Of a stretch of 32,000 nucleotides of DNA, positions 5,730 to 29,971 are shown piece by piece. Source of the stretch: Erysipelothrix larvae (GTDB lineage Bacteria > Bacillota_I > Bacilli_A > Erysipelotrichales > Erysipelotrichaceae); the NCBI RefSeq assembly GCF_001545095.1, contig NZ_CP013213.1, forward strand, positions 1,470,001 through 1,502,000. Reading direction: 5' to 3'. Positions within the stretch are counted from its first letter, which is position 1. Every line of letters starts with the position of its first letter. The position numbers and the translations under genes were made by a program. The notes beneath the pieces are model-generated. The model was given only the letters and a program-made list of their open reading frames with translations. It ran no database searches and had not been told where the DNA came from.

Positions 5730-7103
5730 ATGCAACAACCGTTAGTCTTTGATTATGATAAAGAACCCTCGCGCGATATCTTGTGCATCGATTGCAAGAG
5801 CTTTTATGCGTCGTGTGAGGCGGTTTCTCGTGGGTTAAATCCACTGACTGTGAAACTTGTTGTGATGAGTTATCCCAGTGATAATAAAAACGAACGTGGA
5901 AGTGGCCTCATCCTTGCATCCAGTCCTGCAGCCAAGAAAGCCTACAACATCTCTAATGTAAGTAGAGCCCGTGATCTGCCCTTCCCTTATCCTGAAGATT
6001 TGATTATTGCACCGCCTCGCATGAACTATTACATGCAAATCAACAAGCAAATCAACAACATCTATCGGACCTTTGTCGATGACTCAAACATTGAAGTGTA
6101 TTCGGTTGATGAGACCTTCCTAGATGTCACAGGTTCCTTAAAATACTTTAAGTGCAACAATGCACGTGAACTTGCGAAACTCATTCAAATTAAGGTCTAT
6201 AAGGAAACTGGTATTTATACAACTGTGGGTATTGGGGATAATCCCCTCTTAGCTAAACTTGCTTTAGATAATGAAGCCAAACATACCAAGGACTTCAAAG
6301 CAGAATGGCGTTATGAAGATGTGCCCGATAAGATTTGGAACATTAAATCACTCACCGATTGTTGGGGGATTGGTCGACGTACTGAAAAACGCCTCAATAA
6401 CTTAGGCATCACATCGATGTATGAATTAGCGCATACCGACTATTATAAGATTAAGAAAAGCATGGGAATCTTAGGCGCACAGCTTTATGCACATGCTTGG
6501 GGCATTGATCGTACCTTCTTAGGTGAACCCTATGCTCCCAAATCAGAATCGATTGGAAACTCACAAGTCCTCAATCGTGACTATTATACGAAAGAAGAAA
6601 TTGAAATTGTAATTCGTGAAATGAGCGACCAAGTCGCAACACGCTTACGCAAAGAAAATAAGCTCTGTAAAAGTGTCAGCCTTTGGGTAGGTTATTCCTT
6701 GAGTTATTTAGATGACGAAGGGAAACGGGGGTTTGCGAAGCAAGTTAAAGTTGAGGCAACAAACAGCAGTAAGAAAATTTACCAAGCTTGCCTCTCAATT
6801 TTCAATAAGTACTATGATGTCCAGGTCGTTCGTAATATTGGAATCAACTGTACAAAGTTAGAATCTCCGTTTCAAGAGCAGCTGAACTTGTTTGAATCTG
6901 TTGAGGATAAAGATAAAGAACATCACCTTGATGAAGTGGTGGATACGATACGAAGTAAATACGGATTCACTAAACTTGTGTATACCAGTAGCCTATTAAG
7001 AGGTGGACGTGCCATTGCCCGTAGTAAACTGGTGGGTGGTCATGCAGGTGGTATGAGTGGACTGGATGAGAAAGGAGACGCAGATGAGAAAAAGAAGCCC
7101 TAA
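5730..7103 (+). CDS. Y-family translesion DNA polymerase (ImpB/MucB/SamB; UmuC/UvrX/YqjW-like), intact copy, 457 aa
   Basis: The N-terminus ILCIDCKSFYASCEAV, the catalytic SVDETFLDVT, and GIGDNPLLAKLALD with the WGIGRRTEKRL helix-hairpin-helix are hallmarks of Y-family polymerases. A GAAGGGAGG RBS precedes the ATG. A YolD-like gene follows, as in the B. subtilis uvrX-yolD and yqjW-yqzH pairs. Confidence 0.9.
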   Translation: MQQPLVFDYDKEPSRDILCIDCKSFYASCEAVSRGLNPLTVKLVVMSYPSDNKNERGSGLILASSPAAKKAYNISNVSRARDLPFPYPEDLIIAPPRMNYYMQINKQINNIYRTFVDDSNIEVYSVDETFLDVTGSLKYFKCNNARELAKLIQIKVYKETGIYTTVGIGDNPLLAKLALDNEAKHTKDFKAEWRYEDVPDKIWNIKSLTDCWGIGRRTEKRLNNLGITSMYELAHTDYYKIKKSMGILGAQLYAHAWGIDRTFLGEPYAPKSESIGNSQVLNRDYYTKEEIEIVIREMSDQVATRLRKENKLCKSVSLWVGYSLSYLDDEGKRGFAKQVKVEATNSSKKIYQACLSIFNKYYDVQVVRNIGINCTKLESPFQEQLNLFESVEDKDKEHHLDEVVDTIRSKYGFTKLVYTSSLLRGGRAIARSKLVGGHAGGMSGLDEKGDADEKKKP

Positions 7104-7430
7104 ATTTTTTGTGGATTATAATGACTATCATGATCGTCCCTTTGGCTTAAAATGGGGCACTGCATTTGCGTTAGCAGAACTGGTGAGTGTGATTGACACA
7201 AACAAGAAAGATGCCAAAAAGGAAGTCTATGAATTTCCTGAGATGAGTCGGGAAGAAATCGATCACGTTCTTCAACATGCTTTCCTAAAATCAAAAAAGG
7301 TATCCATTCAAATGAACATACGAGACCATGATGATCATCTTATCGAGAACGTAATTGGAAAATTCGAAGGGTTTTCAGACTCTGAATTCTTGTATATTGA
7401 TGGTCAAGAACTCGCTTGGGAACTCATTCG
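6714..7430. repeat. Left copy of a 717-bp imperfect direct repeat (3' third of the polymerase gene plus most of yolD)
   Basis: It aligns base-for-base with 26579-27295 at a constant offset of 19865 and no indels. I counted about 27 mismatches by eye (about 96 percent identity). Similarity stops abruptly on both sides. Confidence 0.9.
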
Positions 7431-7452
7431 TCATATTCAAGAACTGGATTAA
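7084..7452 (+). CDS. YolD-like protein (accessory partner of Y-family polymerases), copy 1
   Basis: It overlaps the end of the polymerase gene. AAAGGAG lies about 6 nt before ATG 7084. The K-W-x-x-A-F motif (GLKWGTAFALAE) and a beta-rich C-terminal half (VSIQMNI...IGKFEGF...LYIDGQEL) fit the YolD family pattern. The track ORF start at 7057 is less likely. Confidence 0.7.
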   Translation: MRKRSPKFFVDYNDYHDRPFGLKWGTAFALAELVSVIDTNKKDAKKEVYEFPEMSREEIDHVLQHAFLKSKKVSIQMNIRDHDDHLIENVIGKFEGFSDSEFLYIDGQELAWELIRHIQELD

Positions 7453-7472
7453 TATTGATGTTTTAAGCATTT

Positions 7473-8846
7473 TTAAAGGTTAAAGTAGTCACAAATTGAA
7501 ATGGTCTTGACATCGATGTCTCCTGTTTCAACAGCATTCTTAGTAAAGAGCATCTTTTGAACTGTGTAATCACTAAACAACGTTGCACGCTTATCCAGTG
7601 TTTGTAAAGTCTTGCTAAGTTTTAATGAATTAGTCCACTTACACTCTCCTATTATTAGGTTTTTTCCATCGAGGGACTCAACAATAATATCAATTTCTTG
7701 AACATCGCCTTTTTTGTCTTTCCCCCACCATTTTCCAAATGTTTTCGCAATAAAAGGCAAGCCATTCTTTGCGTTAACACGTCTTAGATATTGACGCGTG
7801 ATTTCTTCAAAAATCGGCCCAATAAACTCACTGAGATTATTCAGTGAATGCTGCCAGTAAATATCACCATGACCACGTTCAATTTCAGTTCTTATTGAAA
7901 AAATAGTGCGATACCAATAAGCGATAAAGTTTTCTGTTATGTGATAGTAGCTTTTCTTTCCTTTGAGTGGATTTGAACCAAATGGAATAATTCGCTCAAT
8001 GTAATTCAATTCTTGTAAAGTAAGGAGATACTTTGAAATCAGGCTCGTTTCAAGTTTCGTAAAGCCTGCAATACCACTTAATGTGACAGCACCACTCGCA
8101 ATTGCTTGTAGCACAGAATTATATATAGCTGGTTCTCTAAATTCCTGTTTCATTAAGAGTGTTCCCTCATTAAAGAGATAACCATTAATGACAAAGTACA
8201 AATTCTTTAGATTCTCCTCAAAAGTTAAGCTTGGATCAATCATTGATAAGTAATAAGGTGTTCCACCGATTGTTGCATAATAGCGAATTTTATCCTCGAA
8301 ACTTACGTCTGGATAAAACTTCGATGCATCATAATAATCCAAAGCATTCACTTTTATTTGTCCTGTTCTTCGTCCAAATAATGGGCTTTTTTCACCCAAC
8401 ACCTGATTTTCCATAAAGCTTACTGAAGAGCCACATAGAATCAAAAAAAGATTTGTATTTTTAAATTTATGGTCGATGATATGCTGAAGTGTTGAATTCA
8501 AAGAACGGTTTGCGCTTGCAGCGTAGGGATATTCATCAATCACGACAACCAAGTGTTCATGACCAAAGTTCTCCGCAATGATTGTAAACAATACTTCCCA
8601 GTTTTCTACAGGTGGAAACCCACTTATTCCCAGTAATTCACCTAATTGTTGCGAAAATTTAGCTAAATTAAGAGCGTCATTTACTTCTTCACAAGAAAAA
8701 TAGATTGATTTTTTATCACTAACAAACTCACTTATGAGCGCAGTTTTCCCAATACGCCTTCTTCCATAGACAACCGCCATTTGAAAATTGTTTCGTTCAT
8801 GCATGTTTTCGAGTGCTTTTAACTCGTTTTCTCTTCCAAAAAACAT
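7473..8846 (-). CDS. AAA-type ATPase (archaeal-ATPase/ATPase_2 family) with C-terminal DUF234-like PD-(D/E)xK module, 457 aa
   Basis: The N-terminus FFGRENELKAL is followed by Walker A GRRRIGKT and Walker B LVVVIDEYPY. The C-terminal EIDIIVESLDGKNLIIGECKW is a D...E-x-K restriction-endonuclease-like motif typical of DUF234. A GGAGGTG RBS lies 5 nt before the ATG. Confidence 0.85.
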   Translation of the reverse strand: MFFGRENELKALENMHERNNFQMAVVYGRRRIGKTALISEFVSDKKSIYFSCEEVNDALNLAKFSQQLGELLGISGFPPVENWEVLFTIIAENFGHEHLVVVIDEYPYAASANRSLNSTLQHIIDHKFKNTNLFLILCGSSVSFMENQVLGEKSPLFGRRTGQIKVNALDYYDASKFYPDVSFEDKIRYYATIGGTPYYLSMIDPSLTFEENLKNLYFVINGYLFNEGTLLMKQEFREPAIYNSVLQAIASGAVTLSGIAGFTKLETSLISKYLLTLQELNYIERIIPFGSNPLKGKKSYYHITENFIAYWYRTIFSIRTEIERGHGDIYWQHSLNNLSEFIGPIFEEITRQYLRRVNAKNGLPFIAKTFGKWWGKDKKGDVQEIDIIVESLDGKNLIIGECKWTNSLKLSKTLQTLDKRATLFSDYTVQKMLFTKNAVETGDIDVKTISICDYFNL

Positions 8847-8859
8847 GGACTCACCTCCA

Positions 8860-8918
8860 TTTATACTACTTTAGATTATTATACTTTAAAGTAGTATAAA
8901 TATCAATTCATATACTAC
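8860..8918. promoter_or_regulatory. Operator-like palindromes overlapping that promoter (three TATACTAC half-sites)
   Basis: A perfect 14-bp inverted repeat, TTTATACTACTTTA (8860-8873) and TAAAGTAGTATAAA (8887-8900), has one arm in the promoter spacer and the other over the predicted transcription start. A third half-site TATACTAC (8911-8918) forms a second palindrome with GTAGTATA (8891-8898), and that palindrome spans the -35. Confidence 0.5.
8878..8906 (-). promoter_or_regulatory. Sigma-A-type promoter of the ATPase gene: TTGATA, 17-nt spacer, TATAAT
   Basis: On the minus strand the -35 TTGATA is at 8906-8901 and a perfect -10 TATAAT is at 8883-8878, with an exact 17-nt spacer. The -10 ends about 32 nt upstream of ATG 8846, and the RBS is at 8851-8857. 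Confidence 0.6.
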
Positions 8919-9261
8919 CATTGATAATTTACAATTTTCAATTTATTATAATGGAATAACATCATCGATTATAATAGATAATAACAATAGCTTGTTTCAA
9001 AAGTAAAATGATCCCCAAAGGTTAACAAGGAATAAAGGAATTGGATGTTCACTCGTTTCATCGATAAACGAGAACATTCAAGTAAATGATGTATCACTGA
9101 GTAACACTTTTGAACTTAGCATGCAAGCAGAGTACTTTAATTCTTGATATTGAAATAATGATTAACATTTTAAATCATAGTCAGTATACCAATCAAATGA
9201 GTAAACTTCCCAATACTTGAAAGACTTCTTCTCTTTTTTTGTGTAATAAAAACCAATCATC

Positions 9262-9294
9262 CAAAAAAAGACTTCCTAAACGAGCGAAGTCTTT
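9262..9294 (-). terminator. Rho-independent terminator at the end of the LRR operon
   Basis: On the minus strand, AAAGACTTC (9294-9286) pairs with GAAGTCTTT (9275-9267) across a 10-nt loop. The stem runs into a T7 run (complement of 9263-9269). It starts about 38 nt after the stop at 9332. Confidence 0.7.
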
Positions 9295-9331
9295 ATTATC
9301 TATTCTCTGTAGGAAACTAATGTCACCTGTT

Positions 9332-9640
9332 TTATTCATCTAGCGTTATAAATTCATTATTCTCATTAACGATCAATGTTCTCACATCGTGTTTATTCAA
9401 ACGATAGAAGATACCGTTGTATTTCACTCCATCAATCTCAACTTCAGTGCCACGACCACTCACAATTACCGATTTTGCATAACTCACGACAAAATCTTTG
9501 ATGATTGTGATGTAGTCATCCAACTTATCTGTGTATACATCATACAGACTCGAGAACTGTGAATCCATACATAGATCCTCATCATCGTCAAATGACGCAT
9601 ACTCTGGAATATATTGATAATATTCTGTATGATTTTCCAT
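9332..9640 (-). CDS. Hypothetical small acidic protein (102 aa); possibly the surviving 3' part of a decayed longer gene
   Basis: The ORF has plausible protein composition (MENHTEYYQYIPEYASFDDDEDL...GVKYNGIFYRLNKHDVRTLIV). It is the last ORF before the terminator. The same frame continues upstream with protein-like sequence but is broken by stops (see findings). Confidence 0.45.
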   Translation of the reverse strand: MENHTEYYQYIPEYASFDDDEDLCMDSQFSSLYDVYTDKLDDYITIIKDFVVSYAKSVIVSGRGTEVEIDGVKYNGIFYRLNKHDVRTLIVNENNEFITLDE

Positions 9641-9958
9641 ATCTTTGAGTTCTTGATATGATTTACCAACAAAAACTCGTTCATCAAGGAAACAAGCATA
9701 TTCATCGTAAGATCAAAATCGTCATTATCATCCCAATCTTTTAAATGCCACAATAGCATGGTATGCGGTTTCACAAAACTCAAGGTTAACATACAGTATT
9801 TTATCACCATCTGAAACTCCCTGCAATTCAGAAATGATTCCACCAATATCATTAAAAGAATCAATTCATTCATCATACTCATCATATTTCCAGTTATCTG
9901 TAAGCTTGAAGACTTCTTTTTTGTTGGGAAAGGTCAATTACGTATTTGGTGTTTTCTT

Positions 9959-11770
9959 TCATTTTTTTACTCCATAACTTCTTACTGCCCGTGATTTCTT
10001 GACATTTCTAACGATCGTATAATCGTTTATCATTTCATTTTGAACTTCATCGATTGATTTTGACCTACCACTTTCAAGTGAGTCCTTTTCAATATCTTTA
10101 GGTGTATCCCCTTCAATATCCTCTAGTGTATCTTCTTCAATATCTTCAAGTGTATCCTCTTCAATATCCTCAAGTGTATCCTCTTCAATATCCTCAAGTG
10201 TATCCTCTTCAATATCCTCAAGTGTATCCTCTTCAATATCCTCAAGTGTATCCTCTTCAATATCCTCAAGTGTATCCTCTTCAATATCCTCAAGTGTATC
10301 CTCTTCAATATCCTCAAGTGTATCCTCTTCAATATCCTCAAGTGTATCCTCTTCAATATCCTCAAGTGTATCCTCTTCAATATCCTCAAGTGTATCCTCT
10401 TCAATATCCTCAAGTGTATCCTCTTCAATATCCTCAAGTGTATCCTCTTCAATATCCTCAAGTGTATCCTCTTCAATAATTTCAGGAGCTTCAGTCTCCT
10501 TTTGATCATTATTACCAATGTCACTCTTATTTTCTGACCGCTTCTTGCTGGTTGAAGCATGTGCTTTTCCAGCTTCTGTATTTGAAGAAAGATAGTTGAC
10601 TGAGATTGTCGCTTTCACTGATTTTGCATATTCAAAATACTCATCAATCACTTGTGCGTCAAGATATCCTGCTTTATTCATAATCTCTAAGAATTCTATT
10701 TTCTTATCTTTGATGGCTTTCTTGATAACTTTAACAAGCTCAGGATCATCCTTTGATAGCTTGCTAAAATTATAATCAAGATAAAGGGATCTCAATACAT
10801 TCAATGCATTTTGTTGTAGTATGTGCCGAAGTAATTTTATTTCTTGTTTTTCAGTAAGTCGACTCACTTCATTTGGAGGTCTAGAGTCCTTGAAAATAAT
10901 ATTGGGATTGCAATTTTTTAGTGTATCTGCAGTGATATTAGTAAATGAAGCGAGTATTAAGGTTTCAAGATTTCTACATTCTGAAAAGCAATTCTCTTTT
11001 AGAATTGTGTGTTTACCCATGACTTCAACACGTTCTAATGCAGTACAATGCATAAAACTTTGATATTCTACTAACTTTGTCTTCTCAGTAATAACGATTG
11101 ATTTTATGGTTTTATTTCTTGAATACGACGAGTGATCAATTCTATCAAATATACTGTTAACAGCTTCCACATGCTCAGCACCAACAATTGATGCCGAAAT
11201 ACCATTAGTAACAACCAACTGCGATATTTCACTAGAGTTCGTGAATGCTGTAAAACTGTCAAACGCATCATTTCCAAGATGTTGAATATTTACTGGAAGT
11301 CTAACCTCATCAAGATCAAAACAGTAATTAAATGCTCCCCAATGAATTGCAGTTATACTATCAGGTAAAATCACTTTTCTTAACGCGTCGTCAAATTTAC
11401 ACATATCGCTACTGATTTCTTGCAATCCATCAGGAAAAACGATTGACTCTAAACTTTTGCAAAAGCAAAATGCGGAAGAGTCGATCTGCTTGACCGAATT
11501 TGGAATTATCATTGAAATCAGCTTACTACAACTCTCAAATGCACTTTGACGTATTATTCTTAGTGTGCTAGGAAGCACGATTTCGCTAAAATTACTTTCT
11601 CTGAAAGCTTCTTCTCCAATTTCTTCAACAGGTAATCCTTCAATCTTACTCGGGATAACTAATTTCCCATCTTTTTTGCTCCCTTTGTAGCCTAGAATAG
11701 AAATCATCTTACCATTATTATCGTAATTGAAGTCTTTAGCATTGCTCTTATCTTTCTTCCAAAATAACAT
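9959..11770 (-). CDS. BspA-type leucine-rich repeat (LRR_5) protein without signal peptide, with a C-terminal acidic (EDTLEDIE)n repeat tract, 603 aa
   Basis: Repeated IP.SV..I...AF..C..L..I.LP units are present, for example IPNSVKQIDSSAFCFCKSLESIVFPDGLQEISSDMC and ILPDSITAIHWGAFNYCFDLDEVRLP. The N-terminus MLFWKKDKSNAKDFNYDN is hydrophilic. The tandem-repeat tract lies near the C-terminus. Confidence 0.88.
   Translation of the reverse strand: MLFWKKDKSNAKDFNYDNNGKMISILGYKGSKKDGKLVIPSKIEGLPVEEIGEEAFRESNFSEIVLPSTLRIIRQSAFESCSKLISMIIPNSVKQIDSSAFCFCKSLESIVFPDGLQEISSDMCKFDDALRKVILPDSITAIHWGAFNYCFDLDEVRLPVNIQHLGNDAFDSFTAFTNSSEISQLVVTNGISASIVGAEHVEAVNSIFDRIDHSSYSRNKTIKSIVITEKTKLVEYQSFMHCTALERVEVMGKHTILKENCFSECRNLETLILASFTNITADTLKNCNPNIIFKDSRPPNEVSRLTEKQEIKLLRHILQQNALNVLRSLYLDYNFSKLSKDDPELVKVIKKAIKDKKIEFLEIMNKAGYLDAQVIDEYFEYAKSVKATISVNYLSSNTEAGKAHASTSKKRSENKSDIGNNDQKETEAPEIIEEDTLEDIEEDTLEDIEEDTLEDIEEDTLEDIEEDTLEDIEEDTLEDIEEDTLEDIEEDTLEDIEEDTLEDIEEDTLEDIEEDTLEDIEEDTLEDIEEDTLEDIEEDTLEDIEEDTLEDIEGDTPKDIEKDSLESGRSKSIDEVQNEMINDYTIVRNVKKSRAVRSYGVKK
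10081..10478. repeat. 24-bp tandem repeat (VNTR) inside the LRR gene, about 16.5 copies, 13 of them perfect
   Basis: The unit GTGTATCCTCTTCAATATCCTCAA starts every 24 nt from 10102 to 10462. Units at 10150-10461 are identical. Units at 10102 and 10126 and the flank 10081-10101 are degenerate. Each unit encodes EDTLEDIE on the minus strand, and the unit length is a multiple of 3. Confidence 0.97.
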
Positions 11771-11791
11771 TCTAGTTTTACCTTTCTTTAA

Positions 11792-12904
11792 TTATGAGTA
11801 GTGAGTCTTAACTACTTCAATTCTCATTAACCATTCTTTTATAAATGATATCATTTCATTTCTTTCAACCACTCCCTCAAGATTCACAAACACCACGTAT
11901 GCAAAGTCATTGGATTCAATCACTATGTTTATGCCTCTTTTTCGTTTCAAATCAGACATAATATGAAATTTAAGTTCATTGTTTTCAACGACAATAACGT
12001 CAAGGGCATAGTAAGATTGTCTTAAACTTATAATGAAATCTCGAATCAATTTCTCGTTCTTATATGGAAGAGGTTTATACGAAGGAGTTCGTCTTATGTA
12101 GTCACTAACATATTCGGGATTAAAAACCACACAAACCAATTTACTAAGCTGGGTGATTGATGAAAGCGTGCCAGTAAAATCAGATTGAATCATTACAAAA
12201 GGATACGTAGTTTTGCTGCTTTGATTATCTTCCAATGCAATGTTATTGTAAGAATCAAATCCGTTTAGTAAAGGAATCTTTAAATGATCATCGAGATTGC
12301 AAAAATCATTATCACGCTTCATTGATTTAATGATTGCAGTGAATGAGTTGATTGCGTTATTCTCTTCCTTAACAATTGATGCGGATGAGATCCAACGCTC
12401 CATTACTTCAAGGATATCCTTGTACTTGATACTGTTTAGCACAATAGTTCCTTGATAAAGCTTATTAGAGACATGAAATGCAAATGGAACACTATGATCA
12501 TCTAAGATAACAAAGCTGACTTTTATTTCCCCATAGAGTTGACGAACTTTTATGACTTCATCTGTTCCCCTTTTTGATTCTAACTCAAGGCGATCATACA
12601 ATTCATCCTCAATTTGATCTCTATCCTTCGCTTCATATTCTATTGGACTCAAAAAATGAATTATATCTGCAGATTTATCAGTATCGTCAATGGTTGAAGC
12701 CAAAGTTATAGAGCCATCATCAGATTTTGATTTATCATAGTACATTGACTCTGGTATATTAATGACGAAATCATGGTCAAACTGAAGTTGATATGGACCT
12801 GGAGCAAAACGCGATGACACTCGGTCCTCTCGATGATTAATAAACTCTATATTTTCAGAAACACATTCATTTTTTAGAGATAATATATATTGCTTCCCTA
12901 CCAT
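11792..12904 (-). CDS. Hypothetical protein, 370 aa, no recognisable motif
   Basis: This long ORF sits in the operon. Its ATG shares one base with the upstream stop (TAATG at 12904). The next gene starts 21 nt downstream. There is no signal peptide or TM segment at the N-terminus. Confidence 0.8.
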   Translation of the reverse strand: MVGKQYILSLKNECVSENIEFINHREDRVSSRFAPGPYQLQFDHDFVINIPESMYYDKSKSDDGSITLASTIDDTDKSADIIHFLSPIEYEAKDRDQIEDELYDRLELESKRGTDEVIKVRQLYGEIKVSFVILDDHSVPFAFHVSNKLYQGTIVLNSIKYKDILEVMERWISSASIVKEENNAINSFTAIIKSMKRDNDFCNLDDHLKIPLLNGFDSYNNIALEDNQSSKTTYPFVMIQSDFTGTLSSITQLSKLVCVVFNPEYVSDYIRRTPSYKPLPYKNEKLIRDFIISLRQSYYALDVIVVENNELKFHIMSDLKRKRGINIVIESNDFAYVVFVNLEGVVERNEMISFIKEWLMRIEVVKTHYS

Positions 12905-15736: not shown

Positions 15737-16397
15737 ATTTCCCATCCTCTTCTCATGAAGCAATGACTTGCAAAAAAAGTGTCAATTCTATAACTTTCAA
15801 CTCTTGTAAGCGCTTAACTCAGTGTATTTATTAAACCCTCTATTATCATTCAAATTCAATTATTACATCAATTAATAACACTTTTTAAACAAAACACAGT
15901 TCATTCCATAATCATAGTTTTGCATATAATTTAACGAAAGTCAATTAATTATTTTTATAACTAAACGGTGTCATTGATTCATAAAATAATAATTATTTAC
16001 TAGGTTTTACACGTCCTTTACTCTAAAAATATACACCTTAATAACGATATACGAATGGAGCGATTATAGTGTCAATATAATTTATTCCACATGTATTTAT
16101 CGTTCATTATTTACCTAATTGCTTATATTATTTATGTATTATCCAAAAATATGTAAACAAACCTTCTCATACTAAAAACAACAAAATATCGATATGAGTC
16201 ATATTACATATAATTTTTATCCTGAAGAATCAATTTGGTTTCTGTATATACAAAAGTTTTCTTGCTTCCTAAGCCTAATATGGAATATTTATTGCATTAT
16301 TTATGTTTGTTAAAGAAACAGTACCACAAACGTTTACCACCCGACTGTTGTATTTGTTAATCTAAAAGTGGGCCAATTGTCAATTGAAAACAGTTGC

Positions 16398-21100: not shown

Positions 21101-23238
21101 CTTTCAATCTTATCTTCCAGTTTTGAAACAAGTTGGTTTACCGACATTTCCTTATAATTCGTCTCTTCTAAAATGTTCCAAATCAGTCGTTTTCTCAGCA
21201 TACGCGTGTGATTTGAATCAACAAACGCAGCAAAGAAACTAGCCTGTTGTCTACTATCAGAAAAAGCCAAATACTGTTTAACTTTCGGTTTAACAACCGG
21301 TATCTGTTTGATGGGTTCTGTGCTTATTCTTAATGAAAACTTTCTTCTTTTTTCATGCTTTGCATCATCCCCATCAAGCGTCTCATAAAGGATTTGTGAA
21401 ATTATTGCAGTACCTTCATCTTTACCAACATTAAGTAACTTTACGACTCCCGAAGTTCCTTTATGACCACAATATAGGCATTGACTAATATTATTAAAAC
21501 TGCTTGCTTCCTTTTTGTCATCGTTCCTGATTTTATAAACACTAAACTTGCACAGAGAATCACAATCACATTTTTTTGCATTGAGATTGCCCGTCCTATG
21601 AATTGATCCACACTTGTTGCAAAGCGTATACTCTTCCAATATAGTCTCATCAATGGTTGAGTCAATATCTTCGTTTACCATCTCTTCTAACATAAAGTAG
21701 TCTACTTTTGCACGTTCATTATCACCATAGTTTTCATAAACATCTACTTCTTGATTTTGATATAAATAGTCTAAGCCATCCAGTCGATTTTGTTGAATCT
21801 TACCAACAATGTACGTAGAGTCACAGTATCGACAATTACCAATTTCAAAAGTTTTTTTATTATCAATCGCGTTTGTTTTAGTAAGACTCAGTTTCTGGTC
21901 AGAACCAAATGTTATAAATGCACCCGATAAAGGACGAACAAAGGAATGATACTTTAGATCAAAGAGATTTACTCCATTTTTGCTGGCACCGTTTATTAAG
22001 TCAATGAGGGCGAGCAACTCAGCCTCTTCCAACTCTCTTAACTCGAATTTTAGCGATGCATAATTTTTACTCTTATCTTTCAGACAATTATAAATTGTAT
22101 GTGTATTCTCATCATTTGATAACAAATCATATAAGATTTCCTCATTTTTTGATGCGTGTGTTTCCTTGTATTTCTCACAAATATCAACAAGAGGAATATC
22201 ACTTGCTAAACGCTGTTTCAACTCCAAATAGTCGCTACCTTTAACCTTATATAAGGACGCATGAGAATCAAACTTAATTCGTTTAGAAAAAACAATATCT
22301 GATGTATTAAAAGAACATGACGTTAAGTTCTTCGCAAAGTTAACAATATCTCCTTCACTTTTTCCTTGTGTTCCAAGTGTAGCACTTGTTAAGATGAATC
22401 GTGGTTTCTTTTCAGAGTATGCAGTCAACCTTCGCATTAATAAAGAAATCTCAATTCCTAAAGACCCATTATAAGAATGCGCTTCATCAAGAACTACAAA
22501 CTTCCAATTTGCTAATCGATTTGGATCAAAAATCGCATAATCATTTGGTCGTATAAGAAGATACTCAAGCATTGAGTAGTTTGTAAACAACAAATGAGGT
22601 GGATTTTCCCTAATTTCAGTTCTGGAGATCAACTCATTTACAGGGATTTCAACACCAATTTCTTTTGCAAGTTTCTTTCGATCTTGATCGGTAGTTTCCT
22701 CTGGTGTATCCCCGGTAAAAAAGCCATATGTTATGTTTGGACATGATGAAAGTATTTTCCGAATTCGATCAATTTGATCATTGACTAAAGCATTCATCGG
22801 GTATAAGAATATTGATCGGATACCTATTTCTCTATTTCCATTTTCATAATCCGACAAAATCTCATTCAAGATTGGATAAAGAAAACACTCTGTTTTACCA
22901 GATCCAGTCCCGGTCGTTACAACAGCACTATTTCCTGAACTAATGATGTTTAGTGCTTCTTCTTGATGTTTGTAAAGTGGTCTATCTATTTCAATATTAT
23001 TAAGTTGCCCAAAAGACTTACAAAGCTTTCCTTCTGCTATGAGTTGATTTATTGTCTTTCCTCGCTCAAATGGCAGATCCAAACTAACAAAAGGACCCTT
23101 AAACAGTTCTTCCTTCTCAAGTTGCCTATTAAACAATTCCTGCAGTGAGGAATTACCAAACTTAAAGGACGACTTTAGATATTCCTTGTATTTATGATCT
23201 ATATATAACGATTTTTCTATTGGGTTCAGCGCTTTCAT
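18100..23238 (-). CDS. Giant DEAD/DEAH-box helicase fused to a DUF1998 (MrfA-type zinc) domain, 1712 aa; DruE-like architecture
   Basis: Motif I is TTGTGSGKT (about aa 108-116) and motif II is VLDEAHSY (249-256), with TSAT at 283-286. The C-lobe motifs appear only at aa 970-1036 (QEHTAQL, STTFEMGIDIGD, YVQRAGRAGRR). The DUF1998 hallmarks FDNVPGGAGHV and CCDEDTSCYSCL lie at aa 1495-1540. An AAAGGTGGG RBS precedes the ATG. An ATGA overlap joins it to the upstream gene. Confidence 0.9.
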   Translation of the reverse strand: MKALNPIEKSLYIDHKYKEYLKSSFKFGNSSLQELFNRQLEKEELFKGPFVSLDLPFERGKTINQLIAEGKLCKSFGQLNNIEIDRPLYKHQEEALNIISSGNSAVVTTGTGSGKTECFLYPILNEILSDYENGNREIGIRSIFLYPMNALVNDQIDRIRKILSSCPNITYGFFTGDTPEETTDQDRKKLAKEIGVEIPVNELISRTEIRENPPHLLFTNYSMLEYLLIRPNDYAIFDPNRLANWKFVVLDEAHSYNGSLGIEISLLMRRLTAYSEKKPRFILTSATLGTQGKSEGDIVNFAKNLTSCSFNTSDIVFSKRIKFDSHASLYKVKGSDYLELKQRLASDIPLVDICEKYKETHASKNEEILYDLLSNDENTHTIYNCLKDKSKNYASLKFELRELEEAELLALIDLINGASKNGVNLFDLKYHSFVRPLSGAFITFGSDQKLSLTKTNAIDNKKTFEIGNCRYCDSTYIVGKIQQNRLDGLDYLYQNQEVDVYENYGDNERAKVDYFMLEEMVNEDIDSTIDETILEEYTLCNKCGSIHRTGNLNAKKCDCDSLCKFSVYKIRNDDKKEASSFNNISQCLYCGHKGTSGVVKLLNVGKDEGTAIISQILYETLDGDDAKHEKRRKFSLRISTEPIKQIPVVKPKVKQYLAFSDSRQQASFFAAFVDSNHTRMLRKRLIWNILEETNYKEMSVNQLVSKLEDKIESQRLFDNDLSSEKNAWVSLLIDLLKVDGAHDGEGLGLYYFELDTSSIFDEIDDDIIKDELGQYNINTKNELNTLIQVVATVFKTTPAIKYVQSTLSQEEKEKYLEYRRFNNFVMLKAQKNKLNIRSLLPIVGEENKIVRYVKKACNCNTEGAVKILDMVFNVLSVSDSIDSQDALFIKHNKEDAYQIDASKFKIKNYVESPFYRCNKCSKLTPFNLNNACPSDKCKGKLYKIDPDDALSENYYRKEYKSKKIERMVIQEHTAQLDRKVSKEFQKRFVDKKINILSCSTTFEMGIDIGDLETVFMRNVPPTPANYVQRAGRAGRRSDSSAYILTYCSSSSHDYTYFAAPEKMISGVINPPYFKVDNEKIISRHLLASCLGFFFRQHPDYFISTDSFIFNNGSEVFIDYLKSEPSDLRRYIDEKVVPETRYRNFHKFKWLAEIDYNDEKLTHFIDSIKEMAVEFKDAENASKAENDYEQADYFKGQEEKLHNQSVIEMLSKYCVIPKYGFPVDLVDLQILENDEKRKNDIDLTRDLKIAISEYAPDSEVLVMKNKYVSKYITLPKTTEMFKNYFETCSQCHKINVYTRKTESIKCKYCGGEIRTGTHEYFIQPTLGFKANKSSDSPHLKPKRSYVGEVSYLGGGIFDKMNEYIGTAITVQTSTNDELLVLNRSGFYMCDKCGYSEKITIGSGLPFISKKHKNFREYDCFNEKLIRLRLGHKFQTDVARLTIPSLHSNETESNHRALSFLYAFLEGMSYALEIERNDLDGVLELNLEQKSYDIIVFDNVPGGAGHVKRLLSKEAVISSLKAALDKVSQQCCDEDTSCYSCLRSYYNQTYHSKLKRKFAIDSINQLLNDAEFNVQLVNNALSKESKRMTNLTFGSDGRNPGEETAEEIWNNIYEDCYDENELSMINLLKENSNIIISRPYYRTTLMCRETGEAYFSNLAWKDEKVLLFLNENEDEYRRASEQTDWSCYCTAEEFDVFEFLSRIGGLTDGNHVSK

Positions 23239-25988
23239 ATTTTCCCACCTTTCTCTAAATCAATAATATATGAAAATATGTCATTCAAAGTGTTATCATC
23301 CAATGTATTTGCGACCCTTCTACGTTTTAAGTCTAATAGAAGACCATCCCCTTCGTTTGTGATTGCAAATTCAACGCAATTGTTTTCAATCCCGCTACAT
23401 ATCTCAATACTAACCGGATTTACTTGCGATAATTTAAACTCACTGAATTCTGTCTTCACAAGTAAATCCCCGATATAACAATCATCATTAATTTTCTCCT
23501 TTATCTCAATAAAAGTCTTATTTATGTTCATTTTACGTCTGACTAATCCGTTACTTGTACCTTGATCAAAATACACTTCTTTGACTTTATAATACCTACC
23601 AACTATATCATTACGAGTGTAAAATCTGCGTTTCATTTCACACATCACTCGATTTCTTGATGTTCCAAACCATAACCCTTTTTCTCTTTCAAACAATATA
23701 ATCGTATAGCTTTCAAAAGACTTGAGATTGCTGACCGTTTGAGACTCACCGCTCAATAATTTCTCACTTCTAAATATCTCGATCCCTTCTTCATTCTTAA
23801 TATTAAAAAACACATGTCCTTGACCATAATAATTTGGTGTTACCTTAAGTTTATTGTTAATTGGGTCAAAATCAAGATCAAGATCTGAACTTTTCAATAT
23901 ACACTTGTTGTAGCAATACAATACATTTGCGATTTTTCCATCTACTAAGAATAGTATCTTTACGAAATCATAATTCGCCCTGTATGTCACAAGAAAGCTA
24001 ACATCTATACTTTGATAAGGCGTTGTTTTCTTCATATCTTTAGGATTATCAAGTTCAATCCCTTTATCTGAATGGATCATATATTGATCATAATGATTGC
24101 CAAAGATATCTAATTTTCCTCCTTGTGTAATTTCATCAATCACGATTTCATCATCAAATGAGCACCAATCACTGCCATTCAATCTGTACATATTAAATCC
24201 TAGTGGGACTTCGAAATAGTACATCTCATTCTTATATTTGATACTGAGAATATCTTCAATAAATTCAAGTTGCTTTTGATACTGAATGAGGGGTTCCTTC
24301 AATATATCGCTGGTCAATTGAATTAAACTTCCATGATCGTTCTTAATATCTACCACTAGATTAGAATCCATTACAAACTGAGTTTGAACTACTCTTTTTC
24401 TCACTTCGTTAAACACTTCAAATAGTGACACAGTGTACATATCTGAACCAAAATTACTCAGGTCAACGAGATAACGGTTAATCCCAGAACTCGGCTTAAT
24501 TTCACAGATATCCTTTGTTAATGGAATATGCTTATTATTAATTTGAAACATCAATTTATCTTTATCATATTCTGATTCAAACATAAAATAGCGAATACTT
24601 TTGTAAATCGGTATTTTCTTTTTATTGTCTTGCCTTACCAAAAAATGATCTTGGTACAATTCTCCGATAACACCCGGTTCTGTGTGTGAAAGAAAGATAA
24701 AAAATTCATCATCAATTAGAAATGAATCACCAATTTCTACTGTTTTTACAGCCAAACTATAATATTGATTTACAGTGTTAAAATTTAGCATAGAATGCTT
24801 CGTATTTTTTCGACTACAAAAAATTGTAGTTCCAGAATAATCAGTATGATTCTTAATTTCTTTTCCATCTTCTGTAAACACGAGAATCTTACGATTCAAT
24901 TTGTCTAGACTATCGTAAATAACTTCTTCACCGCATACGAGTTGATAACTTATCTCGCCCAAAGGATCATCAAGATGAATTGCACTAGGATATAACTGAT
25001 ATCCACCAATAATCTCACGAATATCGAAGCGATCATCTTGTAAATAAAGATGATCACCATTATATACCTTGATCATCAGTTGTGTATAGTCATAGGTATT
25101 TTTCACTTTATGGAATGGCGGAACTAAGAATACCGCTTGATTATCATAAGTAAATTTGCAATCCCACTTATTCCTTAAGTCTAAACTTTGTGCTCTCCGA
25201 TTGCTTCTTATGCTGTCTCTATCCATTTTTGTACACCAATTCAAATAAGCTTCTTTGAAGTAGGTCATCGAAATTGCAATACTCTTGTTCCAAATATAAG
25301 AATCAATGAGCTCAACGACAGTTTTGCTAAAATCAATTAAACTATTTAAACCATTTTCACTGCTTATTAATCGCTTCGTTGACACAATTAGCTTATATGT
25401 TTTCTTGGTTAAACTAATCGAAACAGTATCACCATCAGATAGCATCGATTCACGAATTCCTTCATAGACAAATCTGAATTCTTCTTCCACATTATTTGGT
25501 ATATCAAAATCAAAGTTAGTTACATAAATGTCGTATATAAAATCAAAAAAATCAATCAAGAATTTTTGGGGAACAATAGAATGAGAGAGGGCAACACCAA
25601 TATACAAAGAAGTATTTTTTATTTCCTTTTGCGTTTTATATTGCTTCAATATCGTTCTAATCAATGACTCAATCTTTTGATCAGAAAAATTATCATAAAG
25701 TCTTGAATACTGATCCTGAACATGATCATAAAATTTACCATCATAATTTAACATCTGTATTAACGACAATGACATTAGTACAATATCGCCATTTTTAACA
25801 TGTTCCCCAACATAAGTAGATAATGTATAAATAAGGCTAGATTCTGCGCTTTCATGAATATATTGAACGATTTTTGGGAAATCCATCAACGTAATAAGGT
25901 CCATACCAATATTGTGACCTGACTCAAGTTTACGTTTTATATCTTGTATTATTGAATCAAAATGATCTCTCTCTTCTATTTTTAACAT
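23235..25988 (-). CDS. Large hypothetical protein, about 917 aa, first gene of the helicase operon (positional equivalent of DruH; homology unverified)
   Basis: It is an uninterrupted ORF in which I can recognise no catalytic or nucleotide-binding motif. The start is set at ATG 25988 (MLKIEERDHF), just after GGGAGGA. The track start at 26033 is a TTG without an RBS and would sit in the putative promoter. Its stop overlaps the next start (ATGA at 23235-23238). Confidence 0.85.
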   Translation of the reverse strand: MLKIEERDHFDSIIQDIKRKLESGHNIGMDLITLMDFPKIVQYIHESAESSLIYTLSTYVGEHVKNGDIVLMSLSLIQMLNYDGKFYDHVQDQYSRLYDNFSDQKIESLIRTILKQYKTQKEIKNTSLYIGVALSHSIVPQKFLIDFFDFIYDIYVTNFDFDIPNNVEEEFRFVYEGIRESMLSDGDTVSISLTKKTYKLIVSTKRLISSENGLNSLIDFSKTVVELIDSYIWNKSIAISMTYFKEAYLNWCTKMDRDSIRSNRRAQSLDLRNKWDCKFTYDNQAVFLVPPFHKVKNTYDYTQLMIKVYNGDHLYLQDDRFDIREIIGGYQLYPSAIHLDDPLGEISYQLVCGEEVIYDSLDKLNRKILVFTEDGKEIKNHTDYSGTTIFCSRKNTKHSMLNFNTVNQYYSLAVKTVEIGDSFLIDDEFFIFLSHTEPGVIGELYQDHFLVRQDNKKKIPIYKSIRYFMFESEYDKDKLMFQINNKHIPLTKDICEIKPSSGINRYLVDLSNFGSDMYTVSLFEVFNEVRKRVVQTQFVMDSNLVVDIKNDHGSLIQLTSDILKEPLIQYQKQLEFIEDILSIKYKNEMYYFEVPLGFNMYRLNGSDWCSFDDEIVIDEITQGGKLDIFGNHYDQYMIHSDKGIELDNPKDMKKTTPYQSIDVSFLVTYRANYDFVKILFLVDGKIANVLYCYNKCILKSSDLDLDFDPINNKLKVTPNYYGQGHVFFNIKNEEGIEIFRSEKLLSGESQTVSNLKSFESYTIILFEREKGLWFGTSRNRVMCEMKRRFYTRNDIVGRYYKVKEVYFDQGTSNGLVRRKMNINKTFIEIKEKINDDCYIGDLLVKTEFSEFKLSQVNPVSIEICSGIENNCVEFAITNEGDGLLLDLKRRRVANTLDDNTLNDIFSYIIDLEKGGKI

Positions 25989-26017
25989 AAGTCCTCCCAG
26001 GTGTATTAAGCGCTTAC

Positions 26018-26047
26018 AATATAAAACTCTCAATTTTGTCTTGTTAA
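26018..26047 (-). promoter_or_regulatory. Candidate sigma-A promoter for the three-gene helicase operon (TTAACA, 18-nt spacer, TATATT)
   Basis: On the minus strand the -35 TTAACA is at 26047-26042 and the -10 TATATT is at 26023-26018, 30 nt upstream of ATG 25988. This is motif match only, in an AT-rich context where such matches are common. Confidence 0.3.
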
Positions 26048-26578
26048 TATCCGATTTGATTAATTATGAATTCTTCTAATTATCATTATTATAAGCTTAA
26101 AGACATTAAATAGAAAGATCAAACAAAGATTATATTTAACTTTTCCACTCCCTGTTGCTATCGCATCACTTGTAAGCATTGCGGCTATACCAGGATGATA
26201 AGTTGATGATTCTTTGTTTTCCCTAACACGAGAGGAGAAAGTTTTATTGACAATAACGACAAATGTGTTCTTCTATTTCATTGCCCAACAAAAATTCACT
26301 GCGTATACAGTACTTTAGAGTCTGTAATATTATGCTTAACTCTATACAAAAAAGTCAAACTAAAATCTAGCAATTCTGTTTGTTTCTTCAAAAATATTCT
26401 TTGACTGCTCTTTCATTTTAACTCTCCTAGATATTTATTCTTCCCACCCATAGGAAAAGCTCATCTTTTTTGTAATTCCCGTTTTTATATTTCGAGTGTC
26501 TACTTTGAAGTGAACATATCACTAATGAAATACAAGTCTAGAATATCTGTTAACACTAGTTATTAAATCGAGGTTGAA

Positions 26579-26968
26579 GACGAAGGGAAACGGTGGTTTG
26601 CGAAACAGGTTAAAGTTGAGGCAACAAACAGCAGTAAGAAGATTTACCAAGCTTGCCTCTCAATTTTCAATAAGTACTATGATGTCCAGGTCGTTCGTAA
26701 TATTGGAATCACCTGTACAAAGTTAGAATCTCCGTTTCAAGAGCAGCTGAACTTGTTTGAATTCGTTGAGGATAAAGATAAAGAACATCACCTTGATGAA
26801 GTGGTGGATACGATACGAAGTAAATACGGATTCACTAAACTTGTGTATACCAGCAGCCTTTTAAGAGGCGGCCGTGCCATTGCCCGTAGTAAACTGGTGG
26901 GTGGTCATGCAGGTGGTATGAGTGGACTGGATGAGAAAGGAGACGCAGATGAGAAAAAGAACCCCTAA
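26579..26968 (+). pseudogene. 5'-truncated fragment of a Y-family polymerase gene (last ~129 codons only)
   Basis: It translates in frame to DEGKRWFAKQVKVEATNSSKKIYQAC...GGHAGGMSGLDEKGDADEKKNP, which matches residues 329-457 of the intact copy with 4 amino-acid changes. It has no N-terminal catalytic domain, no start codon and no RBS. The track ORF 26753-26968 only starts at an internal TTG. Confidence 0.88.
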
Positions 26969-27295
26969 AATATTTGTGGATTATAATGACTATCATGATC
27001 GTCACTTTGGCTTAAAATGGGGTACTGCATTTGCATTGGCGGAACTGGTGAGTGTGATTGACACAAACAAGAAAGATGCAAAAAAGGAAGTCCATGAACT
27101 TCCTGAGATGAGTCGTGAAGAAATCGATCACGTGCTTCAACATGCTTTCTTAAAATCAAAGAAGGTATCCATTCAAATGAACATACGTGACCATGATGAT
27201 CATCTTATCGAGAACGTAATTGGAAAATTCGAAGGGTTTTCAGACTCTGAATTCTTGTATATTGATGGTCAAGAACTCGCTTGGGAACTCATTCG
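26579..27295. repeat. Right copy of the 717-bp imperfect direct repeat
   Basis: It is colinear with 6714-7430 (offset 19865, no indels, about 27 mismatches by eye). Upstream of 26579 the sequence is unrelated, and an in-frame TAA sits at about 26564-26566. Confidence 0.9.

Positions 27296-27442: not shown

Positions 27443-29960
<2,518 letters not shown>

Positions 29961-29971
<11 letters not shown>

Follow-up and report, generated by a model that had tools for sequence, protein, structure and literature searches.

The presence of most defence islands is put down to integrases or to double crossovers in conserved flanking sequences, and the scars that reveal recombinase-free entry via a single gene are few, coming mainly from RM genes in competent Gram-negatives and from toxin loci. 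In the simplest case, a single crossover of a circle bearing a 5'-truncated gene fragment leaves one intact and one beheaded copy around the insert; such Campbell integration, for example of suicide plasmids, is reversible by recombination between the copies. A comparable arrangement is that of the e14 prophage, which Hill et al. in 1989 reportedly placed in icd of E. coli K-12 (icd / icdC). RM genes have been found inserted without mobility genes between flanking repeats of 30-423 bp (up to 417/423 and 384/412), which often span the stop codon so that the target gene stays intact; the criteria for such long target duplications are an insert of <20 kb, direct repeats of >30 bp, no mobility genes, and R and M genes inside (PMC2853133). 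In T6SS effector-immunity and Rhs loci, displacement is proposed to leave orphan 3' ends, likewise without mobility genes (Kirchberger et al. 2017, PMC5361080). Entry without a recombinase has already been described for both kinds of locus.

The island described here is a clear-cut Gram-positive case that carries a Druantia-like system, seen as one event in one genome. It lies in a window of 32,000 nucleotides of Erysipelothrix larvae (contig NZ_CP013213.1, positions 1,470,001 to 1,502,000), where positions 6714-7430 and 26579-27295 are colinear at a constant offset of 19865. Exact alignment of the two segments, which are in direct orientation and both on the plus strand, gives 690 identities, 27 mismatches and no gaps over 717 bp (96.2% identity), in line with the roughly 27 mismatches without indels that the original prediction had counted, and the pair was also recovered in an independent scan. 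Just beyond the repeat, identity at the same offset is 23-27% (0.276 in a further calculation), so the match is not due to chance. The 27 mismatches are evenly spread; mismatch-free stretches of 107, 89, 89 and 70 bp are located throughout (at 3.8% divergence), the extreme left edge shows 15 identical nt (6714-6728), and the GC content of the repeat is 0.40-0.41. A type I RM system occupies 3-2931, outside the island and just left of rlmD.

The left repeat (6714-7430, plus strand) belongs to an intact operon. A gene for a 457-aa Y-family DNA polymerase (5730-7103, plus strand; Pfam IMS 2.1e-30, IMS_C 1.9e-21 and IMS_HHH) matches an NCBIfam DNA polymerase IV subfamily at 2.5e-88, under the curated cut-off, and its product aligns from end to end with Erysipelothrix and Enterococcus polymerases at 62-77% identity. 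The repeat takes in the last 130 codons of this gene, from codon 329 of 457, and most of a complete small ORF of 131 aa (7057-7452, plus strand) that overlaps the polymerase gene by 47 nt, confirming that the left copy is the 3' part of an intact polymerase gene. The small ORF is kept 3' of the polymerase in more than 70 loci, and an alignment of eight sequences has 32 invariant columns. Its earlier designation as yolD is backed by no Pfam or NCBIfam profile: searches of both collections returned no family match, and the profile of the YolD-like family (Pfam PF08863) failed to match either window copy even at a threshold of E = 10, or any of the eight aligned members (the two window copies and six homologues) at a threshold of E = 1. 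We would allow for a remote homology to YolD. Elsewhere, a lone small ORF was seen on a phage contig, and group II introns lie within polymerase/small-ORF genes.

The right repeat (26579-27295, plus strand) begins with a beheaded polymerase fragment, a pseudogene covering codons 329-457 (26579-26968, plus strand). In the polymerase frame the junction reads '...SVNTSY*IEVEDEGKRW', with the stop four codons 5' of the start of homology; the translation thus bears out an abrupt start at codon 329, preceded by unrelated sequence and an in-frame stop. Of the four amino-acid differences from the left copy, three are derived on this side, among them the replacement of the invariant Gly334 by Trp. The fragment is followed by a complete small ORF of 131 aa (26922-27317, plus strand) that converges with atpC (27443-27829, minus strand; Pfam ATP-synt_DE_N and ATP-synt_DE), which closes the F-type ATPase operon, forms the core right flank and is 100% identical to E. 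larvae AOC36_06935.

Comparison of the two copies showed 8 synonymous and 3-4 non-synonymous changes in the polymerase part (dS 0.105-0.119, dN/dS 0.09-0.125), and the small-ORF part gave a dS of 0.17-0.19 and a dN/dS of 0.09-0.11. The ratio is low even in the polymerase part, where the right copy is now a pseudogene. The repeat copies behave as diverged functional alleles with a dN/dS of about 0.1, which agrees with the earlier term homeologous, and the mostly synonymous differences indicate that two once-functional alleles have been brought together. A strict long target duplication or in-situ duplication, in which both copies stem from one resident sequence and have diverged since insertion, appears very improbable on these figures. 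The defence genes, the lack of mobility genes, the insert of less than 20 kb and the long imperfect repeats do fit the published criteria (PMC2853133). However, if the beheaded copy had decayed neutrally after an in-situ duplication, 67% of the changes should be non-synonymous, which the 3/11 observed reject (P=0.008); a dS of 0.1-0.19 is far above expectation for a recent duplication with intact cargo; and in their last 22 nt the two small ORFs differ as separate alleles do, not as copies of one target.

These last 22 nt also qualify the proposed bounds of the repeat. The 717-bp block stands, but homology goes on past 7430 in a weak form as far as the stop of the small ORF, extending the repeat to 739 bp. 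At 7430 identity drops sharply from 96% to 50% within one reading frame. In the diverged tail (7431-7452, plus strand), 11/22 positions are identical between left and right (P=0.02 against background), and the 11 mismatches in 22 nt depart from the repeat's own mismatch rate at P=1e-10; both small ORFs end at the same aligned codon (chance P about 0.04). The left tail, 'HIQELD*', is a genuine family C-terminus, and the right tail, 'NVQILK*', is closer to the family norm, relatives ending in IRNVSIVK, IRNIQIKE and IRNIRVLD. As the weak homology runs on to the small-ORF stop, the island carries an entire substitute for the 3' end of the operon, and the different but genuine C-terminus of the left small ORF at the same stop indicates that the cargo brings a gene end of its own. 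The sudden change in identity at 7430 has the look of a recombination breakpoint between alleles.

Between the repeats lie 19,148 bp in which all sizeable annotated ORFs (7473-26033) are on the minus strand. Their strand and AT-richness had been noted from the outset, and the measured values agree: GC is 0.335 in the cargo, 0.393 in the left flank and 0.374 in the right flank. The cargo is compositionally foreign (0.335 versus 0.37-0.41). That it consists of accessory genes is upheld, but a defence function can be assigned to only about half of it. Nearest to the left repeat is a gene for an ATPase_2 and DUF234 protein of the PADLOC candidate defence family PDC-S27 (7473-8846, minus strand; PDC-S27 5.4e-57; Pfam ATPase_2 3.4e-28, DUF234 6.4e-22), whose stop and that of the left small ORF are 20 nt apart. 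An ORF of 102 aa (9332-9640, minus strand) and one of 370 aa (11792-12904, minus strand) have no match in Pfam, PADLOC or NCBIfam, and a 368-aa protein (12904-14010, minus strand) shows a weak RCC1-repeat match (Pfam RCC1_2 8.5e-08). Two BspA-type LRR proteins, of 603 aa (9959-11770, minus strand; Pfam LRR_5 5.7e-38) and 588 aa (13997-15763, minus strand; LRR_5 2.5e-112), have no obvious N-terminal signal sequence and are predicted to be cytoplasmic; in the gene for the former, a 24-bp unit repeated in tandem about 25 times (9978-10577) encodes (EEDTLEDI)n.

The right part of the cargo carries the Druantia-like pair. A gene for a NERD and UvrD-like helicase (16398-18122, minus strand; PADLOC RTasNERD-Hel 1.8e-71, NERD+UvrD 1.9e-16; Pfam UvrD_C_2) overlaps by 23 nt the end of a gene for a large DruE-type helicase of 1712 aa (18100-23238, minus strand; PADLOC DruE1 7e-182, DruE3 1.3e-156; Pfam DEAD, Helicase_C, MZB). 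DruE is the signature gene of Druantia. Upstream of it, in the position of DruH, a partner gene encodes a 932-aa protein (23235-26033, minus strand) that has no Pfam, PADLOC or NCBIfam match and is 100% identical to E. larvae AOC36_06920. Homologues of this protein at 34-39% identity are widespread in Clostridia, and in the loci read an overlapping DruE-like gene always comes after them; the pair in the cargo has no relative above 39% identity. The cargo ends in a 545-bp AT-rich non-coding stretch (26034-26578, GC 0.305), whose right end abruptly meets the beheaded polymerase. This stretch presumably carries the promoter of the 932-aa/DruE operon, promoter-like sequences having been recognised on the minus strand at 26047-26018 and 26358-26329.

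The original prediction had also noted that no recombinase gene is present, and this holds within the window. Pfam, PADLOC and NCBIfam searches of the cargo ORFs found no recombinase, transposase, replication, transfer or phage-structural domains, the longer open frames from the gaps 8847-9331 and 26034-26578 gave no family match, and the gap 15764-16397 was translated and inspected by eye. Neither an integrase gene nor a recognisable remnant of one was found beside either junction in the cargo ORFs and the gap frames scanned, and no short att-like repeats were found at other island boundaries. A recombinase acting in trans, or encoded beyond the window, could conceivably have been involved. 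The island might be the remnant of a site-specific element (a prophage, ICE or IME) with its att site in the polymerase at about codon 329-334, which carried a replacement gene end and whose integrase has since been deleted or is supplied in trans. An intact target gene entering the island and an orphan C-terminal fragment at its far end correspond to the e14 icd/icdC layout (PMC13626634), the homology, counting the diverged tail, reaches precisely to the operon stop and so preserves function, and the 15 identical nt lie just at the left edge of the repeat. In addition, polymerase/small-ORF pairs are tied to mobile elements elsewhere, namely to IS elements and a T4SS in Erysipelothrix sp. HDW6A, to the phage contig and to the group II introns. 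We nevertheless regard such a remnant as unlikely, given 19 kb without an integrase, excisionase, replication, transfer or phage gene or remnant in the gap frames scanned. The junctions, with 20 nt on the left and 545 bp of AT-rich non-coding DNA on the right, leave no room for an integrase; 717 bp at 96% goes well beyond what a site-specific system requires in both length and similarity; and megablast matched no phage or plasmid record.

The nearest polymerase homologue (77% identity) is that of Erysipelothrix sp. HDW6A, sitting amid IS elements and a T4SS coupling protein, and this genome has two polymerase paralogues (P0001 and P0002) on one chromosome; the nearest homologue of atpC has 59% identity. 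Searches brought up no other genome of E. larvae, and the only further record is a 100% identical short-read contig whose sequence is interrupted within the repeat. The original prediction had presupposed a standing polymerase-yolD locus beside atp, but in relatives that share this atp operon atpC is followed by trkH-trkA, and in other Erysipelothrix species the polymerase operon is located elsewhere; a polymerase beside atp is specific to E. larvae. No second copy or long direct repeat was found within 10 kb on each side in about 90 other polymerase/small-ORF loci, among which the event does not seem visibly recurrent. The HDW6A paralogues are in keeping with a history that involves no integration via the operon: E. 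larvae would have had two resident paralogous operons in the same orientation, derived for instance from tandem or successive mobile elements in a variable region, one of them beheaded by deletion or defence-gene turnover, with gene conversion producing the 96% tract and the sharp right end. The unconserved atp-adjacent position points the same way, as the whole tpx-atpC interval may be variable, and so do the type I RM system left of rlmD and the switch at 7430, which fits the end of a conversion tract. On the other side, this history takes more steps, including the coincidental loss of the second operon's 5' part and of any carrier element, and the mismatches are even rather than arranged in converted and unconverted patches. 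A post-conversion dS of 0.1-0.19 would moreover mean long co-residence, over which far more than 3-4 non-synonymous changes are expected in the beheaded copy. We find it rather improbable.

The best reading, to which we give about an even chance, is a homology-anchored, integrase-free entry, in which the DNA would have arrived in one of two forms, a Campbell circle or a linear fragment that was joined illegitimately on one side. A complete operon and a beheaded second end flank the cargo, which indicates that the block entered through that operon. We propose that the 19.1 kb of cargo would have come by horizontal transfer, linked to its own allele of the operon 3' end, and would have been fixed by host homologous recombination in the operon and one non-homologous junction at polymerase codon 329. 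The product would be, in order, a functional hybrid operon with the incoming end, the cargo, the resident's displaced beheaded 3' end, and atpC. Entry could have been by a single Campbell-type crossover with a circle of 19,865 bp that combined the cargo with a 5'-truncated allele, or by a linear fragment with a crossover in or left of the polymerase and its far end joined illegitimately at codon 329, that is, by homology-facilitated illegitimate recombination or 3'-end displacement. Both routes would give the same product, indistinguishable in one genome, and neither would require an island-encoded recombinase. Of the Campbell-type entry originally put forward, the anatomy of a single reciprocal exchange in the operon is matched, but a linear fragment, an integrase-borne element or a beheaded paralogue would yield the same product. 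Several points weigh against the homology-anchored entry: the event is not visibly recurrent among the other polymerase/small-ORF loci, the duplicated segment stops exactly at the operon stop codon, which is also a hallmark of integrase-borne gene-end replacement, and the setting of the HDW6A homologue amid IS elements and a T4SS coupling protein makes a mobile-element origin of one copy plausible.

The sequence itself shows the anatomy, the allelic nature of the copies and the lack of recombinase genes in the window; which way the DNA moved, that RecA took part and that the event can be reversed are what we infer from this arrangement. With their perfect runs of 107, 89, 89 and 70 bp the repeats are good substrates for RecA-mediated deletion, and loss of the island is plausible; if so, RecA-dependent loss would restore one hybrid operon beside atpC. 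In B. subtilis, RecA-dependent transformation falls only logarithmically up to 15% divergence (PMC6382021). A bolder and doubtful extension, for which we see only a slim chance, is that the operon 3' end serves as the portable homology arm of an actively mobile integrase-free cassette: a 19.9-kb circle would be excised by RecA between the repeats and re-integrate by single crossover in related operon-bearing genomes, its defence cargo being swapped at each hop and mosaic breakpoints such as that at 7430 being left behind.

Compared with known systems, the cargo resembles Druantia type III (DruH-DruE) in that a DruE-type helicase of about 1700 aa follows an overlapping large partner gene, a pairing kept in distant Firmicutes defence islands; it differs in that the 932-aa partner matches no PADLOC DruH model, and the overlap of the NERD-helicase gene with the DruE 3' end is seen in the island but not in the relatives read. 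As in Campbell integration, the island has a complete left and a 5'-truncated right copy in direct orientation, whereas, in contrast to a suicide plasmid, its fragment extends through the natural operon end and nothing is inactivated. As with e14 in icd, an island-borne 3' end keeps the target gene intact and an orphan 3' fragment lies at the far junction; however, e14 of E. coli K-12 has its own integrase and excises site-specifically, while the island has no recombinase. The duplicated segment of e14, about 165 bp, is also much shorter than the 717 bp here. As to a short identical core, the island has the 15-nt identity at the left edge of the repeat and the longer perfect runs throughout it. 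The size, repeat and mobility-gene criteria for long target duplication of RM genes (Nobusato et al. 2000; Furuta, Abe & Kobayashi 2010) agree with the island, but its repeat is longer (717 or 739 bp), it contains a Druantia-like pair, NERD-helicase, PDC-S27 and LRR genes instead of RM genes, and its two copies look like separate alleles, with a dN/dS of about 0.1 and tails that differ. The displacement of 3' ends in T6SS and Rhs loci provides the same sequence of parts, an upstream homology anchor, a new 3' end with downstream genes, and the old beheaded end pushed downstream, although the piece displaced here is the end of a DNA-repair operon rather than a toxin tip or immunity gene, and there is a single displacement rather than an array. 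The layout of the island is familiar from long target duplication and from 3'-end displacement with orphan ends, both known classes, and the divergence within its scar, with two functional alleles, a displaced 3' end and a sharp allele switch, informs on the route of entry.

Aligning 6714-7430 with 26579-27295 at a constant offset of 19,865 nt yields a block of 717 bp with 690 identities, exactly 27 dispersed mismatches and no gaps (96.2%), in agreement with the original prediction of a colinear, indel-free repeat pair with about 27 mismatches, and the same pair was recovered independently by a repeat finder. Just outside the block the identity at this offset is 23-27%, which rules out chance similarity or low complexity. 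The left copy is, as claimed, the 3' part of an intact gene (5730-7103) encoding a 457-aa Y-family DNA polymerase with Pfam IMS, IMS_HHH and IMS_C domains. It contains codons 329-457 and covers most of a small 131-aa ORF (7057-7452) that overlaps the polymerase gene. The right copy begins abruptly, and the predicted beheading at codon 329 with an in-frame stop before it is seen in the polymerase frame 5' of 26579, which reads '...SVNTSY*IEVE' and then continues with 'DEGKRW...'. Neither chance nor an assembly artefact accounts for the pair, given that the mismatches are dispersed and that L001, an independent contig assembled from short reads (Logan SRR6161627) and the sole other public record of the sequence, is 100% identical to the window over 27218-32000, across the right-hand junction. 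L001 stops 78 nt inside the perfect 107-nt run of the repeat, which is what a short-read assembly broken by the same repeat structure should show.

Synonymous changes account for 17 of the 27 mismatches. Nei-Gojobori estimates for the polymerase part give dS of 0.105-0.119 and dN of 0.011-0.013 (dN/dS 0.09-0.125), and those for the small ORF dS of 0.17-0.19 and dN of 0.017-0.018 (dN/dS 0.09-0.11). In-situ duplication followed by neutral decay of the beheaded fragment was rejected on these ratios, since 3 of the 11 changes in the polymerase part are non-synonymous, compared with the approximately 67% expected under neutral drift (P=0.008). Most of the divergence therefore accrued while both sequences belonged to working genes in different lineages, and the repeat copies are alleles rather than a fresh duplicate. 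Slight decay after the beheading is visible: at three of the four positions where the polymerase parts differ in amino acid, the right copy has the derived state, including a Trp at the otherwise invariant Gly334.

Beyond position 7430 both small ORFs (7057-7452 and 26922-27317) stay open for six more codons and are closed by stops that align with each other; their tails ('HIQELD*' on the left, 'NVQILK*' on the right) are identical in 11 of 22 nt. Both are genuine family C-termini, because the small ORFs of relatives end alike (IRNVSIVK, IRNIQIKE, IRNIRVLD and IRNISLET). The chance of a stop at exactly that codon is about 0.04; the 11 identities have P=0.02 against background, and 11 mismatches in 22 nt have P=1e-10 given the repeat's own rate. 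Thus the homology continues, at far lower identity, up to the precise end of the operon, where it ceases. This points to an allele switch at the right-hand boundary rather than the end of a fragment, with the cargo linked to its own complete gene end and the left operon staying intact, and the step from 96% to 50% identity resembles the point at which recombination has joined two alleles that had diverged. Both the allelic behaviour of the copies, as judged from the non-synonymous count, and the switch at the small-ORF ends render a strict long target duplication, or any duplication in situ, highly improbable.

All sizeable annotated ORFs in the interval (7473-26033) lie on the minus strand, and the GC content of the cargo is 0.335, compared with 0.393 and 0.374 in the flanks and 0.40-0.41 in the repeats, matching the description of the intervening DNA as minus-stranded and AT-richer. 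The statement that it holds no recombinase gene is likewise borne out for the ORFs and gap frames scanned. Searches with Pfam, PADLOC and NCBIfam detected no recombinase, transposase, replication, transfer or phage-structural domain in any cargo ORF, and the longer open frames in two of the three non-coding gaps had no family match, the third gap being read by eye; the sole matches of the gap search were an HTH gene and an hsdM fragment, both outside the island. No integrase was found in the window, nor any att sites or further boundary repeats beyond the 717-bp pair, and a megablast of 5000-27400 against plasmid and phage collections for the source of the island gave no match. An integrase-borne element that replaced the gene end it interrupted and has since lost its integrase would be in line with a duplicated segment ending exactly at a stop codon and with the association of these operons with mobile elements; we nevertheless consider it unlikely, as neither an integrase remnant nor other element genes are present and there is no room for an integrase at either junction.

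Integrase-free, homology-anchored entry is a reading to which we would assign about even chances, because there is no recombinase or mobile-element gene, the copies are allelic and the repeat retains long perfect runs (107, 89, 89 and 70 bp) at 3.8% divergence. RecA-dependent exchange works in B. subtilis over a range of divergence that well includes 3.8% (PMC6382021). One exchange within the operon would have joined an incoming allele 3' end plus cargo to the resident operon, and the second joint would be a single non-homologous junction at codon 329. This could have happened through a Campbell crossover of a 19,865-bp circle or through a linear fragment held by homology at one end and joined illegitimately at the other (homology-facilitated illegitimate recombination, or 3'-end displacement). 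Both routes lead to an identical product, and the sole difference is whether the crossover lies inside or to the left of the 717 bp. Loss of the island by recombination between the repeats may reasonably be expected.

Exact-protein look-ups, a genome scan and large protein searches found no second E. larvae genome. Exact look-ups of both small ORFs, tpx and hsdR gave no match, and that of atpC (AOC36_06935; 27443-27829, minus strand) returned one short-read contig only, identical to the window and ending inside the repeat; the best atpC match outside E. larvae in large protein searches is 59%. The best polymerase match anywhere is 77%, in Erysipelothrix sp. HDW6A, and a scan of species-representative genomes with the polymerase returned five loci at up to 77% identity, none of them syntenic. 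The operon has a fixed, different context in E. rhusiopathiae (ABC-transporter/GH20) and adjoins capsule genes on one Logan contig, while the 77% polymerase of HDW6A (L015, 1-18249) is found amid ISL3, IS110 and rve transposases and a T4SS coupling protein. In relatives with the same atp operon, trkH-trkA lies directly 3' of atpC. Because the operons of relatives sit elsewhere and their atpC is followed by trkH-trkA, the polymerase and small ORF beside atp are a peculiarity of E. larvae and not a conserved locus. The original interpretation is partly upheld: entry through the operon and the lack of a recombinase are supported, and a Campbell event in particular, reversibility and a site for swapping cargo are possibilities.

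The HDW6A chromosome encodes a second polymerase paralogue (73%). Two resident paralogous operons, one of them later beheaded, with gene conversion generating the 96% tract, would accord with this pair and with the variable appearance of the interval, but would require more steps and predict more decay of the beheaded copy, which makes such a history distinctly improbable. No duplicated operon end was found within 10 kb on either side of the small ORF in 69 metagenome loci, the genome loci or one viral locus. With no second example among about 90 other loci carrying the operon, there is so far no sign of a family of such cassettes.

The small ORF is conserved and tightly linked to the polymerase. 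Its identification as YolD was rejected, as none of eight family members (both window copies and six homologues) matched Pfam YolD or an NCBIfam model, and the name 'yolD' is best taken as a nickname for its position. No Cheo-type LexA box was found upstream of the polymerase. In other loci the operon is itself interrupted: insertions of ~2.6-2.7 kb encoding a reverse transcriptase, looking like group II introns, occur at about codon 40 of the small ORF in four metagenome loci (L091, 7385-10000, and L092, L093 and L094) and at about codon 27 of the polymerase in another (L074, 797-3476); the L091 insertion adds an HNH domain, and RVT_1 only was detected in that of L074. A metagenome contig (L068, 1265-11189) has ~7.5 kb between polymerase and small ORF, comprising a second, inverted polymerase and an arsenic-resistance cassette (arsR, arsA, ACR3-like), with a gene for SRAP (SOS-response peptidase) 3' of the small ORF; cargo has therefore been inserted at this operon elsewhere too, without detectable duplication. 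On an IMG/VR phage contig (L023, 8693-10363), a lone small-ORF homologue (56% identity) without a polymerase follows a CHAP endolysin, a PemK-like toxin and a LytTR gene, in a moron-like position.

At the right of the cargo, all on the minus strand, lie a 932-aa protein without known domain (AOC36_06920; 23235-26033), a 1712-aa DruE helicase (18100-23238; PADLOC DruE1, 7e-182) and a NERD/UvrD-like helicase (16398-18122; PADLOC RTasNERD-Hel, 1.8e-71). Homologues of the 932-aa protein are widespread in Clostridia at 34-39% identity, with none above 39%, and in the loci read each lies directly upstream of an overlapping DruE-like gene within a defence island. The 932-aa/DruE pair can therefore be seen as a Druantia type III-like module, in which the 932-aa protein would be an unrecognised partner in the DruH position. 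A 23-nt overlap between the NERD-helicase gene and the end of DruE suggests that the three genes form one operon; where distant relatives of the pair occur (L024-L026), the third position is taken by a different, 281-aa ORF. At the left end, an ATPase_2 and DUF234 protein (7473-8846, minus strand) belongs to the PADLOC candidate family PDC-S27 (5.4e-57). Directly upstream of its start, a 21-nt near-perfect palindrome (8859-8901; 90% complementary, 1-nt spacer) overlaps the best promoter-like site (8906-8878, 11/12) and is a possible operator. In an uncultured Erysipelothrix MAG (L005, 355-1566), a PDC-S27-type ATPase 33% identical to this one is encoded divergently, directly upstream of the polymerase; its presence near the polymerase in both places may be coincidence.

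Between the two defence modules, 9332-15763 holds four or five co-oriented minus-strand genes: a 102-aa ORF without Pfam, PADLOC or NCBIfam match (9332-9640), a BspA-type LRR_5 protein (9959-11770), a 370-aa ORF without family match (11792-12904), a 368-aa protein with a weak RCC1-repeat match (12904-14010) and a second BspA-type LRR_5 protein (13997-15763). The two LRR_5 proteins have a helical C-terminal region in common and, by eye, no obvious N-terminal signal sequence, and the block may represent a sensor module inside the cell, of a kind not yet described, instead of a set of surface proteins. In the first (603 aa), ~25 head-to-tail 24-bp units (9978-10577), the central ones ~95% identical, encode an acidic (EEDTLEDI)n tract that is likely a length-variable region. 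The label of defence cargo is thus justified for the Druantia-like pair, the NERD-helicase and PDC-S27 only; the LRR/RCC1 block has no defence assignment. A second defence locus lies 3 kb left of the polymerase, where type I restriction-modification genes (hsdR, 556-2931; N-terminal part of hsdM, cut by the window edge, 3-551) and a Cro/C1-type HTH gene (2969-3220), all on the minus strand, are found directly downstream of rlmD (rumA), whose 3' end is a known ICE integration site in streptococci.

Several described systems resemble the E. larvae island. The 'insertion with long target duplication' of Furuta et al. is a class of RM-gene inserts that lack mobility genes, measure less than 20 kb and are bounded by repeats of 30 to 423 bp (e.g., 417/423 and 384/412); the repeats often span a stop codon, the target gene surviving, and the cases are mostly in naturally competent species (PMC2853133). 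Homology-facilitated illegitimate recombination was proposed by Kirchberger et al. for orphan 3' ends at T6SS and Rhs loci, where the arrival of new modules leaves them in place (PMC5361080). The architecture is the same in all of these, whereas the target is of a new kind in E. larvae, the defence cargo differs and the host is a Firmicute; compared with the repeats of Furuta et al., the present one is longer and its divergence pattern argues for two alleles, not one duplicated target. The layout of an element replacing an interrupted gene end is known from e14 in icd/icdC (PMC13626634) and is shared by the alternative of a lost integrase, of which the E. larvae island holds no remnant. The island represents a further case of a known architecture and not a new principle.
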